In this document: piece after piece, positions 15,065-54,696 of the stretch
Layout: each line of letters opens with the position of its first letter
How positions within the stretch are numbered: position 1 is the first letter of the stretch
Notes under the pieces: model-generated
Told to the model about the DNA's origin: nothing
Databases searched by the model: none
Seen by the model: only the letters and a program-made list of their open reading frames with translations
Virus record (IMG/VR): IMGVR_UViG_3300042389_001739
Span: 1-64,000 of that record
Source: a virus
DNA: 64,000 nucleotides
Reading direction: 5' to 3' (one strand)
Made by a program: the position numbers and the translations under genes

Positions 15065-15100
15065 AAAAAAGCCGGTTTAAATTCTGGAATTTAAACCGGC
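15065..15100 (-). terminator. Rho-independent terminator built on the dispersed palindrome
   Basis: GCCGGTTTAAATTC-TG-GAATTTAAACCGGC (14-bp arms) followed by T6 on minus. Confidence 0.7.
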
Positions 15101-15125: not shown

Positions 15126-15455
15126 TCAAATCGAGATCGAGTTGTCCGGCCCAGCCATTGCGCCGGTACCGGTAGTTGTGCCCGGTACGTTCGGACACAA
15201 CTGCACACGTCTGCCGTTTGTCAGCTGGATGCCGTAGTTATTATCCACGGCAAACACCTCAACCGGACGATTGCTCGTCAATTGTTGGGTTGCCCAGCCA
15301 ATAAAGTGTTCTGCCGCTTTTAACTGATCTGCTGTAGCCACTGTGGCAAATTCTGCTGCCAGGTACTGAAGCAAATCCGGTAAGCTGCCTTGCGGTTCAA
15401 ACAACGTTCTCTCCTTTACTGAAGAACGGTGAATTTTTGAAATCGGGTTAGTCAT
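15126..15455 (-). CDS. Hypothetical protein downstream of tubulin
   Basis: Overlaps the tubulin stop codon. Confidence 0.65.
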   Translation of the reverse strand: MTNPISKIHRSSVKERTLFEPQGSLPDLLQYLAAEFATVATADQLKAAEHFIGWATQQLTSNRPVEVFAVDNNYGIQLTNGRRVQLCPNVPGTTTGTGAMAGPDNSISI

Positions 15456-16710
15456 TCACACCCAGAAACTGAGCCAATCCGCCGCCCAGTTGTTCGGAGG
15501 TGATGTTAGCGGCCTTGGCCAGCCGAGTCAACGTAGCTACCGGTGGTTTGAGATCACTGACCATGGCATAGACCTGCAAACCTTCCGAAGCGCCGATGTA
15601 CACGCCACGGTGGACCACCGACGTACCGCCCTTGAGCGTACGATTCATCTGGGTAAAGCCTGCATCGAAGAAATCCAGGCTCAAGTTATCAAGATGGTTC
15701 TGATCACCGACGAACAAACAGGCCCCCTTGGTGCCCTGCGTCAGATCCACCTCCGCCAGCACGTTGTTGGTCAGCTGGTCCCGAATCGCGGCGCTGATGT
15801 CCGCCGGACTGGTTACCGTCGAGATACTGGCGGCACCCATGACACAGATGCCGTTATCCAGCAGCTGCGCCAGCTCACTGCGGTCAAAGGTAATCAGCGG
15901 ACTATGTACGGCCGCCAATTGGTTGAACAGGTGAAACAGCAAGCTGATCGTGTTGTTGGCCACCGGATACAGCTGGGTCATACCAGGCTTGTACAGTGCG
16001 TTAATTCGCGCATTGTCAATCAGGATCAGCGGACTGACCTTGAGCTCCAGCAGTTTCTGGAAGGCCGTGACCGCATTGCGACAAACCTGCTGTCCTTCGT
16101 TTGGACTGGGAATCGAGGCGATCACACCTACCCGTGGTGGTTTACCTTTGGATTCCATGTATTGCCGGGCAATCTGCACCAGCTTAGCCGCCGTACCGGA
16201 ACCGGTGCCGCCGCCCAGCCCAACACAGATCAGACCGTAATCCATATTGTTACCCCAGGACCGCTGCAGCAAATCCCAGATTTCTTCTTCGTGTCCGCTC
16301 AGGCTCTGCTCGGCAAACCGGGCGTCCTTGGCAGCACCACCCAGCTGCAAGGTGTGCCGCTGAATTTCTTCCGGCAAACCTTGAAAATCACTTTCGGCGG
16401 TGTTGAATAAACCGACGCGGCGATACCCCAGCCGGTGAAAGCTGGCAGCCAGTCGTGCGCCTCCCTGGCCTGAACCCAAAAACGCCATATTAAATGCAAC
16501 GTCATAAGGGAACTGATCGTCCACGACAACCTGCGTCATGGCTTGCCGGTGTGACCCTGGATGCAGCGTCGCCGCCACATTACCGATCGGAACCACGCCT
16601 GGCGGTGGTGCGGCCACTGGAATTACATTCACTGCTTCTGGTTTCGGCTTTCGTTTACCGGACGCTTGATCCAGGGATTGAGCCAGGCGGGCATTCAGAT
16701 CGTCACTCAT
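15448..16710 (-). CDS. Tubulin/FtsZ-family GTPase (PhuZ/TubZ-like)
   Basis: GSGQGGARLA (T1), LGGAAKD (T3), signature GLGGGTGSG, LIDN, T7-like FDRSEL; start at 16710 by ATGA coupling. Confidence 0.9.
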   Translation of the reverse strand: MSDDLNARLAQSLDQASGKRKPKPEAVNVIPVAAPPPGVVPIGNVAATLHPGSHRQAMTQVVVDDQFPYDVAFNMAFLGSGQGGARLAASFHRLGYRRVGLFNTAESDFQGLPEEIQRHTLQLGGAAKDARFAEQSLSGHEEEIWDLLQRSWGNNMDYGLICVGLGGGTGSGTAAKLVQIARQYMESKGKPPRVGVIASIPSPNEGQQVCRNAVTAFQKLLELKVSPLILIDNARINALYKPGMTQLYPVANNTISLLFHLFNQLAAVHSPLITFDRSELAQLLDNGICVMGAASISTVTSPADISAAIRDQLTNNVLAEVDLTQGTKGACLFVGDQNHLDNLSLDFFDAGFTQMNRTLKGGTSVVHRGVYIGASEGLQVYAMVSDLKPPVATLTRLAKAANITSEQLGGGLAQFLGVND

Positions 16711-17297
16711 CGACTGTTCTCGCATAAAGACTTCAGGGCTTCAAACCGCAGATTCCTGACGTCCGTATTTGTCATTGGGAAAATCTGCGGAAACTGTTTA
16801 CGCTGTTCATTGTACCGTGCGATATAATGCTGCCGTATAGCTTTTAGCTGGTCCACCGTATAACTTCCTTTAGACCAGTGGGACAAAACCGTCAAGTCTT
16901 CCGCTTCCGTGGCTTGTATATCGACCACGATTGCGGCAACCGGGCGCCAAATCTCCAGAAACGGTGGCAAGGTCGGTGCGGAGATGACTACCTTGAGTGG
17001 AATCACGTCTGTAAACCGCCGAATAAACTCACTCGGCCCTGGGTACGGTATCTCGTAATAGACCGGCAACTGATCGGAGAGCGGATGCACGTTGGCTTGT
17101 ACGCAGATCGCTTCGTGAATCCGCTGTGCTTCAAAGTTTTGGTAATTTGTTTCATAAACGTGTCGCCCGTTGGCCACATCAATATCCTGACCAGGCCAAA
17201 GGACAGACCAACCCTGCTGCAAAAGATACTTTGAAACATAATGCGTGTAGGCTCCAGGCGTCCCGGCAATCAGCACATTGTCGGTATGATGCTTCAT
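16707..17297 (-). CDS. Hypothetical protein, possibly a degenerate sulfotransferase/P-loop fold
   Basis: N-terminal VLIAGTPGAYT; located in the glycosylation cluster. Confidence 0.5.
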   Translation of the reverse strand: MKHHTDNVLIAGTPGAYTHYVSKYLLQQGWSVLWPGQDIDVANGRHVYETNYQNFEAQRIHEAICVQANVHPLSDQLPVYYEIPYPGPSEFIRRFTDVIPLKVVISAPTLPPFLEIWRPVAAIVVDIQATEAEDLTVLSHWSKGSYTVDQLKAIRQHYIARYNEQRKQFPQIFPMTNTDVRNLRFEALKSLCENSR

Positions 17298-45404: not shown

Positions 45405-47500
45405 TTGCGGATTTCTATGCTTTGTTCGAACACCTCTTGAAGATCATGCACATGCGTGATGATCACCATCTGTTGCTGTGTTCCCATTTTACTGGCCAAC
45501 TGCTGCAACGCGCTATGGAAGTATGTCACGTTATCGGCATCCAGGCCACTGGCGGGCTCGTCCAGGAACAGCATGCCGACGTCATGCCCGAACACACGAC
45601 CTAACGCGGTACGGAAAGCAACCGCCAGGATAACCTTCTGTCCACCTGAGAGTTGACTGGCCTTAACGGAGTATTGCCCGGGAAATGTGACCTGGAAAGT
45701 CAAATCCTGGTCTGCCTGCACGGTGAAGGGAGTACCGAACAATTCCAGATTCTCATTAACCCCTTGTACCAACAAGCCAAGATTAGCCTGGGCTACGGCT
45801 TTTGGTAAATTGCTCCAGTGAAATAAATTACCGGCTTCTTCCACAATTTTAAGCAACTCCTGAGTTTTTCTGTGTTTCTCCAGTCGCTTGCGCAACGTGT
45901 GCAAGTTGGCTTCAATACGCTGTTTTGTCTGCTCCAGTACCCGCAGTGCACCATCCAGCTGGTTAACGGCCGCCACGGCATCGTAATGAAGCTTTAAGCT
46001 GGAGGTGGCGCTTTCCAGCTCTCTTTTTGTCGGTCGCTGTTTAATTTTCTCCTGCTGTTTCTCTAGTTCAACGGTATTGTGCTGCAGGTCACTGGTGGTT
46101 TTGGCTTTTGTTTTTTCCAGCTGTGCAATTTCCGTGTTCACGGTGGCCAGCTCTTGTGTCAACTGCTGACGATTGTTTAGAAATTCTCGGGCTTTTGTGT
46201 CGGCACCAGGATCTTCTGCACCAACCAACACATCCAGCTGCGCCCGTATTTCGTTAATCCCGGCAGTCATACGATTGACTTGCGTGTCGTAAGCCGCCTT
46301 TTCTTTGTCGTAGCTTTGCGAAAATTGCACTCGCTGCTTCAGTGCATCGAACTCCTGCTGGGTGGTTTCAATTTCCTTGAGCAGTTTCTTTCTGTGTTTT
46401 TCCGAAATTTCCTGCTGACAATACCGGCAAACCGAATCAGCCAGACTTTCGGGCTCGGCAGCTTCCAGGATAGCGCGTAGTTCGCTTAACCGCTGTGCCG
46501 CGGTCTCCCGCTCATCAGCTTTAAGATAAAGTTGCGAATCCATTGCAGGCGGGAGTAACGACTGAACGCAGTCCATCTTTTTCTGCATACTGTCAGTCAG
46601 TTCATTGATCTGGGCCTTGGCTCTACGGTAAGCCGCCACGGCATTGATCTTGGCATGCGCCAGTTCAACCTTGGGTAAAGTGCGTTCTAGTTGTGCCTGG
46701 ATCTGCCCGCAACGCCCGTACAAACTTAACCCGGAAGTTTCAAGCTGATCCGCCTGAGACTTTAACAACTTAACCTTGGTTTGCTGTGCTTCAATCCCCT
46801 GCTCGGCGTCGCAGGCGACTTCTTCACGGCGGACAATCTTTTGTAAATTTACTACCGTATCGGGTGTTAAAATCTGCTTTTTAGACTCTTCTGCCTGCTC
46901 GCTTGTTTGCCGTATTTCTGTGTTAGTCTTTTCCAGGTCGTCGGTTAACTCAAGCGAGTTATCAACGATTTCAACGCCTTTTTGCTTGTTGACGTAATCG
47001 TTGCACACTTTATGGATTTGAGCCGCAATCTCTACACCACACAAATATTGGAACGTCTTCGCTCGTTCACTATCCCGTGCGTCGATAAAGTCAAACATTT
47101 TCCACTGGTCGACAAAGACGTATTTATCGATTACGGTTTTTGAAATGTTCAGCTCGGCGACAACGGCATCGTTAACGTCGTTTGCCTTTTCATAAGTTTT
47201 TCCTCCAATCTTGAACTCGTTGCGGTTCGGTCTTAACCAGCGTGTGAGTGTAAACTCCTGGTTACGATGTATGCCCGTTAGACGGATATAACTTTCACCG
47301 CTCGAGCCGTTGGTGATGATATCGGCTTTCGTGCCGCTAAACCGCCCGAAGTCGTTTGTGAGTGCCGCGTAAATACTGTTGACTAGCGTTGACTTACCGG
47401 CACCATTCGCGCCCGTCAAACCAATAAGCCCGCTCGCCAGTTCGACTACGAGTTGTCTATGGGGACCGATATTTTGAAGTTCGACTGTTCTGATTTGCAT
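45401..47500 (-). CDS. sbcC: SbcC/Rad50-like ATPase
   Basis: GANGAGKST, CRYC zinc hook, LSGGQ, FLDEP, IITH. Confidence 0.93.
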   Translation of the reverse strand: MQIRTVELQNIGPHRQLVVELASGLIGLTGANGAGKSTLVNSIYAALTNDFGRFSGTKADIITNGSSGESYIRLTGIHRNQEFTLTRWLRPNRNEFKIGGKTYEKANDVNDAVVAELNISKTVIDKYVFVDQWKMFDFIDARDSERAKTFQYLCGVEIAAQIHKVCNDYVNKQKGVEIVDNSLELTDDLEKTNTEIRQTSEQAEESKKQILTPDTVVNLQKIVRREEVACDAEQGIEAQQTKVKLLKSQADQLETSGLSLYGRCGQIQAQLERTLPKVELAHAKINAVAAYRRAKAQINELTDSMQKKMDCVQSLLPPAMDSQLYLKADERETAAQRLSELRAILEAAEPESLADSVCRYCQQEISEKHRKKLLKEIETTQQEFDALKQRVQFSQSYDKEKAAYDTQVNRMTAGINEIRAQLDVLVGAEDPGADTKAREFLNNRQQLTQELATVNTEIAQLEKTKAKTTSDLQHNTVELEKQQEKIKQRPTKRELESATSSLKLHYDAVAAVNQLDGALRVLEQTKQRIEANLHTLRKRLEKHRKTQELLKIVEEAGNLFHWSNLPKAVAQANLGLLVQGVNENLELFGTPFTVQADQDLTFQVTFPGQYSVKASQLSGGQKVILAVAFRTALGRVFGHDVGMLFLDEPASGLDADNVTYFHSALQQLASKMGTQQQMVIITHVHDLQEVFEQSIEIRK

Positions 47501-50088: not shown

Positions 50089-50337
50089 TTAATTTGGCGT
50101 ATTAGCTTTTTCAAGGTCTTCGCTAATTTGCGCCAAATTAAGAACAGATACGCCTAGATTACGCCATTCGCTTGCCTTGGGAAGTTGGGGGAACTTGGGG
50201 CGAAGAATGGTAGCCTGTGTCTCTCTTCGACGACAGACCTCGGCAATTTGTTCCAAGACAGTTGTAATGCCCTGGTGCTCAATAATTTTTGTCAGCTGCT
50301 CGGTTGTGATTTCCGGAAGTTTTTCAGCGTAATGCAT
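50089..50337 (-). CDS. Hypothetical protein
   Basis: Stop/start overlap. Confidence 0.65.
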   Translation of the reverse strand: MHYAEKLPEITTEQLTKIIEHQGITTVLEQIAEVCRRRETQATILRPKFPQLPKASEWRNLGVSVLNLAQISEDLEKANTPN

Positions 50338-50894
50338 TATTTGTCCTCGTCAACGTCGTCAGGGGGTTCAAAATGAAAGTCAAAAGCATCCAACTCTTCG
50401 GCATCTACTATTTTAATATTTTCCGCCCCAAACATTTTCTGAAAGAACGAGATGATCTCTTTCTTTTTCGACTTTATCTGTTTCTCCGCGCGAGCTTCGC
50501 GTGTCTCGTGCGGCAGGAACGCCTGTGACAGTAGTGCCTCTCCGGCGTGGACCAGGTTAATTCGATGAAAAATAGCGGCATCAGAGCTCCACTCGTCCTG
50601 AGTTTCATAGTTACGAACGACCTCGTCGTGTCGTTCCCGAATGGCTCGCAAAATCGTATAGGACAAAAACATGTCCGGAACAGACAGGTTTAGGTAACGT
50701 TCCACGCTGTTAGGCCGCGGAACAAGTAGTGGAACAAACGGCGTATCCGGCGCGCCCAGACGTTCCGCTTCAATGTTTGCCCAGTCTCGCTGGTCTGCCA
50801 CCCAGTCATACAGCTCCAGCAGGCTGTTAAACAGCAGCGAAGGACTGGTGTTCTTACGGGGAAAGGGAGGGGAATAGATCGAATTGTCGTTCAA
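50337..50894 (-). CDS. Hypothetical protein
   Basis: AGGAG RBS, TTG start. Confidence 0.7.
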   Translation of the reverse strand: MNDNSIYSPPFPRKNTSPSLLFNSLLELYDWVADQRDWANIEAERLGAPDTPFVPLLVPRPNSVERYLNLSVPDMFLSYTILRAIRERHDEVVRNYETQDEWSSDAAIFHRINLVHAGEALLSQAFLPHETREARAEKQIKSKKKEIISFFQKMFGAENIKIVDAEELDAFDFHFEPPDDVDEDK

Positions 50895-50895
50895 G

Positions 50896-51684
50896 TTAAT
50901 CTCCTTTGTACTTGTTTACCCGGTACATCCGGGTTTTTTCTGTGAAATGGACCATTTGCTGGTAATGAATCAGACAATCCTGGTTAAGAATCACCAGCCA
51001 GTCCAGCTTACCAAGGTCAGTCAAGGCATCCAGTAGTGTCGTATCGCTTGCGTCCGAAAATATCTTGCTGGCCAGCGGCGGATAGAACTCAAAAGTATGA
51101 AAAACCTTCTGATCCGTTTTCGGTATAAGCTGCAAGCCACAATGTTGCAGCACCAACTCGCCTTTAAGATTAATCACCGGCGTCGCAAATTGCACCGTTA
51201 CGTGTGCCTTCAGCAAAACATGAGGACCTCTGCGAGAATCGAAAAAAGGCAACGATGCCCCAAGCGGCCAATGCCTCTTCCAGATCGCTATGCAACTGGC
51301 GTCACGCACATCAGCTGGAACCTGCATGATCGCATCATACATGGGCCTGATACGGCTGCGTACGTAACACCATGGGCACGTAAGAGGGCGATTGCACACC
51401 CGCGAGCGTGGTCTCATGTAAAAACCAAGCGGCGGACAGTGCATGCGGTACGTGTACTCCAGCCGCTTTTCCGGACTGCACTCTATCAACCGGTAATACT
51501 GCTGGCGTAAACGCTTCTGCAAGTGTGCTGCCTTGGTCAGGTCAGTCTTCTGGTGCGATTCATAATTCGCTGGCAGCACACATCGACGTACCAGGTCAAG
51601 GTCTAAGGATTCCTTTACTTTTAACAGCTTCGGCACGGTTTTAAGTGTCGGGTAGCTTGTGTCGAAATCAGGGGTTTTACCCAT
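50896..51684 (-). CDS. Zn-binding protein resembling the N-terminus of HUH Rep/IS91-type initiators
   Basis: HCPPLG...RVCNRPLTCPWCYVR; AAGGAG RBS; adjacent to the giant inverted repeat. Confidence 0.5.
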   Translation of the reverse strand: MGKTPDFDTSYPTLKTVPKLLKVKESLDLDLVRRCVLPANYESHQKTDLTKAAHLQKRLRQQYYRLIECSPEKRLEYTYRMHCPPLGFYMRPRSRVCNRPLTCPWCYVRSRIRPMYDAIMQVPADVRDASCIAIWKRHWPLGASLPFFDSRRGPHVLLKAHVTVQFATPVINLKGELVLQHCGLQLIPKTDQKVFHTFEFYPPLASKIFSDASDTTLLDALTDLGKLDWLVILNQDCLIHYQQMVHFTEKTRMYRVNKYKGD

Positions 51685-51781
51685 TGAAATCTCCTTCGGT
51701 TATAACGGGGGTGCTAAACCGCAAAATCGTAGCAAAATTAACTGTTGTTTAAAATAGTTGGTAACTTTATCAAACATAAGC

Positions 51782-52137
51782 GTTTATAAAAAATATCAAT
51801 TTTGTTGAGATAAAGTTACGTTACTGCTGTCTTTTTCCTACGGAAAAGACAGAATGTAAGGCTTTTAAGAGCCTTACATATGTTCAGTATAAAAAGATAA
51901 ATTAAAATAGATTATTAACTATTCACGGCGGCCCTACTGGGCTAGTCGCAGCTAACTTGGTTGTTTGCTCTGATTAACCCCACAGGGCACGCCGTAAATA
52001 GATGGTTCTTTATTTGTTTTTATTTTTATTAAAACATAACAAGCGTTTCTATCAAACGCTTGTATTCTATCTTTTCCGTAGGAAAAAGATAGCAGTAACG
52101 TAACTTTATCTCAACAAAATTGATATTTTCTATAAAC
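51782..52137. repeat. Giant AT-rich inverted repeat with nested hairpins (candidate replication origin)
   Basis: 74-bp arms at 51782-51855 and 52064-52137 with 3 mismatches, in the largest non-coding gap of the window. Confidence 0.85.
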
Positions 52138-52215
52138 TTTTTTGATTATGTAATTTAGCCGCTGTTTATCGCAACAGGTAAATTACAGAGCCTATCAGCT
52201 TAATTATGCGCGATG

Positions 52216-52497
52216 CTAGGTAGCATCAGGTGTACTTTGGCTGATCGCAGCTATCACCTGTTCTGGTAGTATGCTTTGAACTGTCACGTGCTTTTCTTCA
52301 TCTGCTATCTTGCCTTGCCCTGCAGCCTGGAGCGTATAGATCAAGGCTGCGCCCAGTAGTGCTAACGCCTTGATGTGCGACGGGTCAGGCACAGCACCAC
52401 CGTAGAGGTCCAGGTTGCACAGGCACCTGGTTTCGTCATCAACGTCGCTGAACTTGGCAAATACGTTCTCTGCCAGCTGGTAGTATTCACAACTCAT
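52216..52497 (-). CDS. Hypothetical protein
   Basis: 93-aa ORF. Confidence 0.6.
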   Translation of the reverse strand: MSCEYYQLAENVFAKFSDVDDETRCLCNLDLYGGAVPDPSHIKALALLGAALIYTLQAAGQGKIADEEKHVTVQSILPEQVIAAISQSTPDAT

Positions 52498-54384: not shown

Positions 54385-54696
54385 TCATATTTCTTCTTTA
54401 ATTGGCAGTTTTAGCTCTACAAGGAGTTGTCTGCATTTTTTCATGGTAATTTCTCCCAGGTTAGGGATTTCCGCCAATTCGTTTAACGATACTTTGGTTA
54501 AATCACCAACCGTCAAAATTCCGTACTGTTCCAAGTTATTTGCTAACCGCACTGGAATACCGACGTCCGTTAACGAAACCGTGTGCCAGTATGCGATCCG
54601 CTGGTTTTCCCGGTCTGTTGCTGTGTAATACTTAGCCCAATAAGGCTCCGGTTTGCAACGCCTCTTGCGTTTGGCAGGGCCTCCATGCTCTTCCAT
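54385..54696 (-). CDS. Stand-alone RNA polymerase alpha-subunit C-terminal-domain-like protein
   Basis: SLTDVGIPVRLANNLEQYGILTVGDL...ELAEIPNLGEITM matches the alpha-CTD consensus (LSVRxxNxL...I.T.GDL...L..PN.G). Confidence 0.85.
   Translation of the reverse strand: MEEHGGPAKRKRRCKPEPYWAKYYTATDRENQRIAYWHTVSLTDVGIPVRLANNLEQYGILTVGDLTKVSLNELAEIPNLGEITMKKCRQLLVELKLPIKEEI

Follow-up and report, generated by a model that had tools for sequence, protein, structure and literature searches.

Genomic setting of the locus

The window analysed here comprises the first 64 kb of the 79,722-bp virus record IMGVR_UViG_3300042389_001739, in a stretch that is present in 21 DNA runs and whose source is lake water. 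The record is ~38% complete according to CheckV and, since related records of 157-179 kb are themselves only 76-84% complete, it represents a fragment of a phage of ~200 kb. Almost all of its genes lie on the - strand, among them a gene for a tubulin/FtsZ-family protein (15448-16725, - strand; Pfam Tubulin, E = 8e-10), which fits a jumbo phage. DNA searches of the annotated phage collection gave no match to the stretch, and no cultured relative was found, the best polymerase match being ~25% identical; strains with 95% identity are represented in the protein clusters.

A fold-back of ~450 bp precedes the replication genes of this phage. Upstream of it are small ORFs without assigned function and a gene for a stand-alone RNA-polymerase alpha-CTD-like protein of 103 aa (54385-54696, - strand; Pfam RNA_pol_A_CTD, E = 1e-9). 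Downstream, the gene order runs from a conserved four-cysteine protein (p262) and a helical-bundle protein (p185) through small ORFs to an SbcD-like nuclease and SbcC, and then through two small genes to an SF2 helicase, a DnaB-like helicase, a primase, a PolA-type polymerase of 1188 aa and a UvsX-like recombinase. Therefore, the element heads a block of replication and recombination genes, whose predicted products make up a T4-like toolkit.

Anatomy of the fold-back element

The two inverted arms of the fold-back (Table 1) are 74 nt long and 95.9% complementary, with three differences, exactly as a previous reading of the sequence alone had described them, and a weaker symmetry reaches 51735-51865 and 52054-52184 (131 nt, 80%). 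That sequence-only reading had also noticed compensatory changes in a hairpin nested in each arm. Indeed, two of the three arm differences form a single base pair of this hairpin (P2), which reads CTGTCTTTTTCC-TAC-GGAAAAGACAG in the antisense-direction arm and CTATCTTTTCC-GTA-GGAAAAAGATAG in the sense-direction arm. The 10-bp hairpins of unrelated sequence (P3) are exactly at the mirror positions that it gave, the imperfect pairing of the core is borne out for 51919-52001, and the element does occupy the most AT-rich non-coding gap, the lowest-GC 200-nt window of the 79.7-kb record being 51724-51923 (25.5% against 50.3%). The folding prediction proposed as a check also agrees, with -123 kcal/mol for 51730-52195 as single-stranded DNA compared with -41 +/- 4 for shuffles (z = -20).

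Table 1. Coordinates of the fold-back element, its parts and the two genes that follow it
Feature	Position	Strand	Remarks
Whole imperfect palindrome (fold-back)	51735-52184		centre near 51960; GC 31% against 50% for the genome
Sense-direction arm	52064-52137	-	same direction as all neighbouring genes
Antisense-direction arm, identical cassette type	51782-51855	+	-10-like hexamer TGTCTT at 51828-51833
P2 hairpin, sense arm	52067-52092		stem of 11/12 bp, 3-nt loop, TAC on the - strand
P2 hairpin, antisense arm	51827-51852		loop TAC on the + strand; G:C pair where the sense arm P2 has A:T, pairing kept
P3 hairpin inside the sense arm	52039-52063		10-bp stem; terminator-like on both strands
P3 hairpin, mirror position	51854-51879		10-bp stem, sequence unrelated to 52039-52063
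A+T-rich tract downstream of the sense cassette	52002-52038		13.5% GC; candidate unwinding element
Mirror A+T-rich tract	51880-51918		12.8% GC
GC-rich imperfectly palindromic core	51919-52001		54% GC; phage-specific, not kept in most relatives
Flanking hairpin and second promoter-like site	52145-52187	-	hairpin with 16-nt arms, 52149-52187; TTGCGA-18-CATAAT, 52174-52145
GTAACTTTATC repeat	51761-51771		exact copies at 51761 and 52100, inverted copy at 51809
p262, conserved four-cysteine (probable zinc) protein	50896-51684	-	97 nt downstream of the element; constant neighbour in relatives
p185, conserved helical-bundle protein	50337-50894	-	gene start 2 nt past the end of the p262 gene

Each arm carries a promoter-like cassette that reads towards the centre. 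In the sense arm (- strand), an A/T-rich upstream tract is followed by a -35-like TTGAGA (52114-52109), a 17-bp spacer, TGC and a -10-like TATCTT (52091-52086), a pattern that has 9/12 matches and a TG in the consensus scan and that occurs otherwise solely in the other arm. There, G replaces A at position 2 of the -10-like hexamer, and this G is half of the compensatory pair. Based on the usual promoter spacing, transcription from the sense cassette might start at the A of the TAC loop of P2, at about 52079. Beyond the three copies listed in Table 1, the GTAACTTTATC repeat has only one match with one mismatch in the record, at 46525.

The search of the element for tRNA and tmRNA genes and against Rfam 15 found no tRNA, and the best Rfam scores were far below the gathering scores. 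In one arm of this phage (51851-51856), ATG-TAA, a start codon and then a stop codon, comes after the 3' half of P2, which is purine-rich and Shine-Dalgarno-like. The same arrangement is present in both arms of one relative (L002) and in the left arm of another (L003), whose right arm has ATG-TAG; this juxtaposition may be due to chance.

Conservation of the mirrored cassettes in lake and marine phages

An alignment of SbcD was used to retrieve 74 IMG/VR loci, of which the closest are syntenic and share the order alpha-CTD-like gene, element, p262, p185 and SbcD. In the self-comparison of ~1.1 Mb of related DNA, nine of the 11 long inverted pairs fell in this slot, and a finer search located an inverted pair in 12/15 IMG/VR loci, with the alpha-CTD-like gene on one side and the p262 gene on the other. 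The alpha-CTD-like gene is itself conserved and is the usual gene immediately upstream of the pair in relatives. A profile of p262 recovered 17 further metagenome loci, Tara and other marine loci among them; 13 of these possess the pair, which precedes the p262 homologue by 100-700 bp, and most of the others are too short upstream. In total, 25/32 related lake and marine loci carry an inverted pair just upstream of p262, so that the search for the same architecture in related phages, suggested by the sequence-only reading, found it in the same slot. The element is a conserved single-copy pair of mirror-image promoter-like and hairpin cassettes in an uncultured lake and marine phage clade.

The arms share almost no sequence across groups and are 85-100% alike within each phage, while the neighbouring proteins are only 25-50% identical across the phages that have the element. 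Two relatives (L078 and L082) are whole-element palindromes like this phage. Read inward, an arm consists of a dyad of 21-38 nt (P1), a -10-like hexamer TAT(C/T)(T/C)T, often after TGn, and then P2, a hairpin with a 5-12-bp stem, a pyrimidine-rich 5' side and a loop of 3-4 nt that is usually TAC. This loop occurs in five unrelated groups, and TGnTAnnnT is present at the P1/P2 junction in 14/22 elements, belonging to at least four sequence-unrelated groups. In this phage, P1 is absent and TTGAGA at 17 bp, with the A/T-rich upstream tract, is present instead.

The stems covary both between phages and between the arms of one phage. In P1, 6/15 pairs change on both sides, and one pair is found with all four Watson-Crick types; compensatory changes between arms affect P2 in this phage, L013 and L081, and P1 in L002. 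These observations, together with the maintenance of the mirror pair in its slot although the arms share almost no sequence, support the earlier proposal that structure rather than sequence appears selected, and do so more strongly than the one sequence could. In quasi-palindromes, compensatory changes can also come from template switching without selection.

Terminator-like hairpins of the P3 type were considered as a general feature and rejected, being found in 9/38 inward flanks and 5/38 outward flanks; downstream of the cassettes, this phage, L002, L078 and L082 have P3 hairpins that end in T-rich tails. A strong sigma-70-like promoter is located ahead of the left arm in L004, L006 and L013.

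Two further repeat arrangements were observed in relatives. A second inverted-repeat cassette in L003 (positions 1-945) has 171-nt arms, 90% alike and without P1/P2 motifs, around two paralogous forward ORFs. In the marine loci L083, L084 and L089, short direct repeats (TGTCCCAG, ATTTGAC) that look iteron-like occur within the spacer and ~50 nt ahead of the left arm.

Authenticity, copy number and inversion of the spacer

An assembly artefact, for which a check had been proposed, is excluded by an independent lake contig and by the 24 related loci of the same architecture. The contig, from a 2020 lake sample, spans 51563-52081, and thus the left arm, the full spacer and the start of the right arm, with one change relative to the record, outside the element. 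Assembler contigs end at the arms, as inverted repeats would predict. In one run (X3), a contig joins 51789 to 52129 on opposite strands, which reflects a flipped isomer or else a switch of path within the 39 nt common to both arms. In two river metatranscriptome runs, the assembled contigs, which derive from a strain 95-99% identical, cover flanking genes only (50875-51641 and 52402-52491) and are uninformative for the element.

The arm and P1 half-sites are confined to the element, in the 157-kb and 173-kb genomes as well as in this record. Because of this uniqueness in the genome, a general promoter/terminator cassette and the site of a global activator are both ruled out, and a mobile element is ruled out because of the fixed synteny.

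The spacer ranges in length from 150 to 1200 bp. It is devoid of genes in this phage, L003, L014, L017/18 and L019, and contains one or two forward ORFs in five distinct relatives (L002, L004/6, L009 and L013), where it reaches 1.2 kb. The centre is the least conserved part of the element. In this phage, the spacer folds strongly on either strand (z = -7, and about -10 in the comparison with relatives), and a strongly palindromic spacer is found only here and in L078 and L082; the spacers of relatives have z between 0 and -3, most folding no better than shuffles, with -4.9 in L002, whose spacer, like that of L013, contains ORFs.

Comparison of L078 with L082 gave 76% identity between the spacer of one and the reversed spacer of the other, against 64.5% in the forward orientation, which corresponds to the background of a self-palindrome. 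As the flanks are collinear, the spacer has inverted between these relatives. In addition, L002, L013, L081 and L088 have P1 loops whose orientation is reversed from one arm to the other. Serine (PF00239) and tyrosine (PF00589) recombinases were absent from the five records searched, which are only 37-84% complete, as was protelomerase (PF16684). Therefore, general recombination between the arms is the likely cause of the inversion. For the same reason, and with the centre being the least conserved part, the earlier suggestion of a resolution site was not sustained.

The p262 and p185 proteins

The p262 family counts 255 clusters in public data at E <= 0.001. Comparison of 54 family members shows four cysteines (NCPPxG...C-x5-CPWCxVR) and one arginine to be invariant, and there is no conserved HUH motif, His pair or Tyr. 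The p262 protein belongs to a far larger unnamed family of ~280-340 aa, with NCPPxGV...C-x5-CP(F/W)C(W/Y/F)AR, whose matches cover the knuckle region only.

The C-x5-CPxCxxR knuckle is also found in the Rep proteins of pC194 and pUB110. The model of p262 is confident (pLDDT 85), and its C-terminal domain is structurally closest to Rep nuclease or origin-binding domains (9pqf, Z 6.7; 2x3g, 6.5; 6h8o, 5.6), although these values are in the noise range and the matches are mixed with GGDEF, ACT and other ferredoxin-like folds. The ESM Atlas provided weak Rep_1 leads, and 3/43 distant relatives of p262 have weak Rep_1 matches (E = 0.0015). In contrast, Pfam Rep_1 (PF01446) has no match in the record at E <= 10, hhalign of the p262 profile with the Rep of pC194 and pUB110 gave a 4% probability, and Foldseek against the PDB returned nothing below E = 0.05. 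Profile searches of PDB sequences, Pfam and PHROGs were also without a match, as were the protein searches for p262 in phages and for a distant p262 relative in plasmids. With Rep links this weak, no HUH motif or Tyr and no Rep_1 match, p262 is not a demonstrable Rep or HUH protein, and its sequence and model point to a nucleic-acid-binding candidate. The four-helix bundle of p185 gave no informative structural match.

Comparison with known systems

In phage T4, an origin combines an A+T-rich unwinding element with a promoter whose -10 is of the sigma-70 type and whose activator site lies at -30 (PMC3016281). In the element described here, a sigma-70-type -10 with an upstream -35 or factor site is recognised by sequence match, and tracts of 13% GC lie ~40 nt downstream of each cassette, an arrangement that is not general in relatives. 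Like T4 oriF (uvsY) and oriG (34), the element is intergenic and close to replication and recombination genes, and both phages possess a UvsX, gp46-47-like and SF2-helicase toolkit. In contrast, T4 has one promoter where this phage has two facing cassettes, the MotA box of T4 recurs at many middle promoters whereas the dyad here is unique in the genome, and the hairpins at the presumed start sites have no T4 counterpart.

The PeSL (promoter-early stem-loop) motifs of T4-type phages, which are compared here by their short descriptions, form series of early promoters and stem-loops scattered through hyperplastic regions (PMC4122927, PMC2839356). As far as these descriptions go, what PeSLs share with the element is that a promoter and a stem-loop are combined in motifs on either side of small, variable genes, within a plastic region prone to recombination (PMC4122927, PMC2839356). 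The element differs in being a single inverted pair of unique sequence, with two copies only, both inside it, instead of a dispersal through the genome.

The element also resembles plasmid systems in having a cis site with dyads or hairpins directly upstream of the gene of a dedicated protein. In plasmid basic replicons, origin repeats and an inverted-repeat operator stand before the rep gene, and rolling-circle plasmids of the pC194/pUB110 type have hairpin origins; their Rep shares the cysteine knuckle with p262. Nevertheless, p262 has no HUH motif, catalytic Tyr or Rep_1 profile similarity and, unlike these plasmids, the phage encodes its own polymerase, helicase and primase.

Mirror-symmetric sites around an A+T-rich centre are likewise a feature of the palindromic origins oriL and oriS of herpes simplex virus, where they are binding sites. 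Chloroplast genomes and the 2-micron plasmid have flip-flop inverted repeats whose intervening segment inverts, as the spacer has done between L078 and L082. The proteins and hosts of these systems are unrelated to those considered here, and the spacer of the phage element is variable and can hold genes. Regarding invertible segments of the Hin/Gin type, both orientations were seen (L078 against L082, and possibly the flipped contig of X3), with no recombinase found.

A candidate replication origin and its alternatives

We favour a role in DNA replication over a purely local transcriptional switch and propose, tentatively and with less than even confidence, that the element is a mirrored T4-oriF-like replication origin or an origin-control region of the replication module. 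In this proposal, the two near-identical cassettes point at each other from either side of a variable, usually A+T-rich spacer, each consisting of an upstream recognition part (P1, or here TTGAGA with the A/T-rich tract), a sigma-70-type -10, often extended by TGn, and P2. Host RNA polymerase would initiate at the cassettes, and the transcripts would invade the adjacent A+T-rich DNA, forming an R-loop that primes the leading strand as in T4 oriF and oriG, so that the mirror layout would supply one primer per direction. The p262 protein could bind the unique dyads or hairpins, licensing the origin or regulating its own expression.

Several features of the sequence would support this proposal, namely the single copy in a conserved slot at the head of a replication block with a T4-like toolkit, the location where the record is richest in A+T, each cassette being followed by a tract of 13% GC, and the combination of a promoter-like core, covarying stems and arm identity within each phage. 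The p262 knuckle and the Rep-type structural matches (Z 5.6-6.7) may point in the same direction. On the other hand, the one or two genes held by spacers of up to 1.2 kb in five relatives are unusual for an origin. Cumulative GC skew, which had been proposed as a check centred on the element, shows no extremum or inflection there and is monotonic in this record and in two relatives (157 and 173 kb), in what is a weak test, since nearly all genes are on one strand and the record covers ~38% of the genome. Two-way priming may moreover fail in this phage, because a G replaces the critical -10 A in the antisense cassette. The bidirectional origin of the sequence-only reading is plausible as regards a single-copy, AT-rich site that heads the replication block beside a conserved zinc protein, but is weakened by the missing skew signal and by the genes in the spacers. 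A bolder version, which we consider rather unlikely, would make this an undescribed type of origin, in which mirrored priming cassettes driven by RNA polymerase, each with a unique dyad, an extended -10 and a start-site hairpin, converge on an unwinding zone and p262, acting as licensor, is a nuclease-dead derivative of a rolling-circle Rep.

The most serious competitor, which we nevertheless regard as somewhat unlikely, is a purely local transcriptional switch between the early and the replication genes, with no role in DNA replication. Face-to-face promoters and a local regulator bound to the P1 dyads, either p262 or a different protein, would gate the operon of p262 and the replication genes by autoregulation, DNA looping or transcriptional interference, maybe with short RNAs that stop at the P3 hairpins. 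In favour of this reading, no part of the element is better conserved than its promoter-like features, and the good -10 has been kept in the sense arm and lost in the antisense arm of this phage. The genes in the spacers of relatives are all forward, as cargo driven by the sense cassette would be, and the sigma-70-like promoters before some left arms, the T-tailed P3 hairpins of four phages, the alpha-CTD-like gene as usual upstream neighbour and the absent skew signal are also in line with such a switch. Against it, the same promoter would serve no evident purpose when aimed at its own operon from the opposite side, although the whole clade retains the mirror copy, and terminators of the P3 type are present in no more than 9/38 inward flanks. 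The dyad has no further copy in 157-173 kb, so that the only control that it could exert is strictly local. We consider it improbable that the element is a recombination or break site, where the arms serve to flip the spacer or the palindrome is the programmed target of the phage SbcCD-like nuclease, a break here starting UvsX-dependent, recombination-driven replication. The reversed spacer of L078 and L082 between collinear flanks, the flipped P1 loops and the X3 contig, which resembles a flip isomer, are consistent with recombination, and SbcC, SbcD and the UvsX-like recombinase are encoded 2-20 kb downstream. However, no site-specific recombinase was found in the five records, and the X3 joint lies in a 39-nt stretch common to both arms which exceeds the assembler word size, so that it may be a graph artefact. 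Inversion would in any case be expected as a by-product of any long inverted repeats in a recombination-proficient phage, and the -10-like element and the TAC loops would be left unexplained. Spacers of 150-1200 bp are also poor hairpin substrates for SbcCD, which counts against a break site.

Still less probable, in our view, is an element acting at the RNA level, either through pairing of its two arms within a single transcript, the long stem being cleaved, for instance by RNase III, so as to excise or insulate the spacer RNA, or through a core that is a structured non-coding RNA, as the sequence-only reading had also envisaged. Complementary arms do flank a variable segment, rRNAs are similarly flanked by long stems, and both strands of the spacer fold strongly in this phage. 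Nevertheless, the differences between arms preserve the local hairpins but break the pairing of one arm with the other, and long-range pairing in RNA is disfavoured because the compensatory changes are local. In L003, the sole wobble pair is a G:T on the inward-reading strand of both arms, and would thus be C:A in the sense transcript of the right arm. With no Rfam family or tRNA matched, and strong folding peculiar to this phage and two relatives while most other spacers fold like shuffles, the suggestion of a structured RNA found no support. A MITE-like miniature transposable element, a telomere-resolution site or an assembly chimera is scarcely credible. Long terminal inverted repeats around a short segment would suit the first two, but a MITE is at odds with one copy per genome in a fixed slot between proteins that have diverged so far across phages. 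For telomere resolution, there is no protelomerase in the records searched, the centre is not a conserved perfect dyad and some relatives have genes there. The reproduction of the architecture in independent samples and in 24 related loci contradicts a chimera.

To our knowledge, hardly any uncultured phage has a known replication origin or early-to-middle control region. The element is a sharply defined, single-copy and easily recognised landmark, paired with the conserved p262 family, and its spacer has inverted in nature between related phages. If it is an origin, it would offer a handle for replication-based estimates of the activity of these phages in lakes and oceans, a basis for building replicons for them and an insight into the re-use of a Rep-like fold. 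If it is only a switch, it would represent an unusual design of face-to-face promoters in which structure rather than sequence is maintained.

Other observations

Two further candidates were discarded. Hairpin promoters of the N4 type, brought to mind by the 3-nt loops, were rejected given that PHROGs and Pfam scans of the larger ORFs found no phage RNA polymerase and that the largest ORF seen in the record is the 1188-aa polymerase. A tubulin-type partition site was dropped because the tubulin-like gene is 36 kb away.

At the end of the contig, beyond the window (79514-79722), there is a tandem repeat of ~108 bp, the last 100 bases recurring 108 bases upstream, and no terminal overlap was found between the end and the start of the contig. 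Finally, positions 15071-15100 form a 30-nt near-perfect palindrome, GCCGGTTTAAATT-CTGG-AATTTAAACCGGC, the second-longest of the record.
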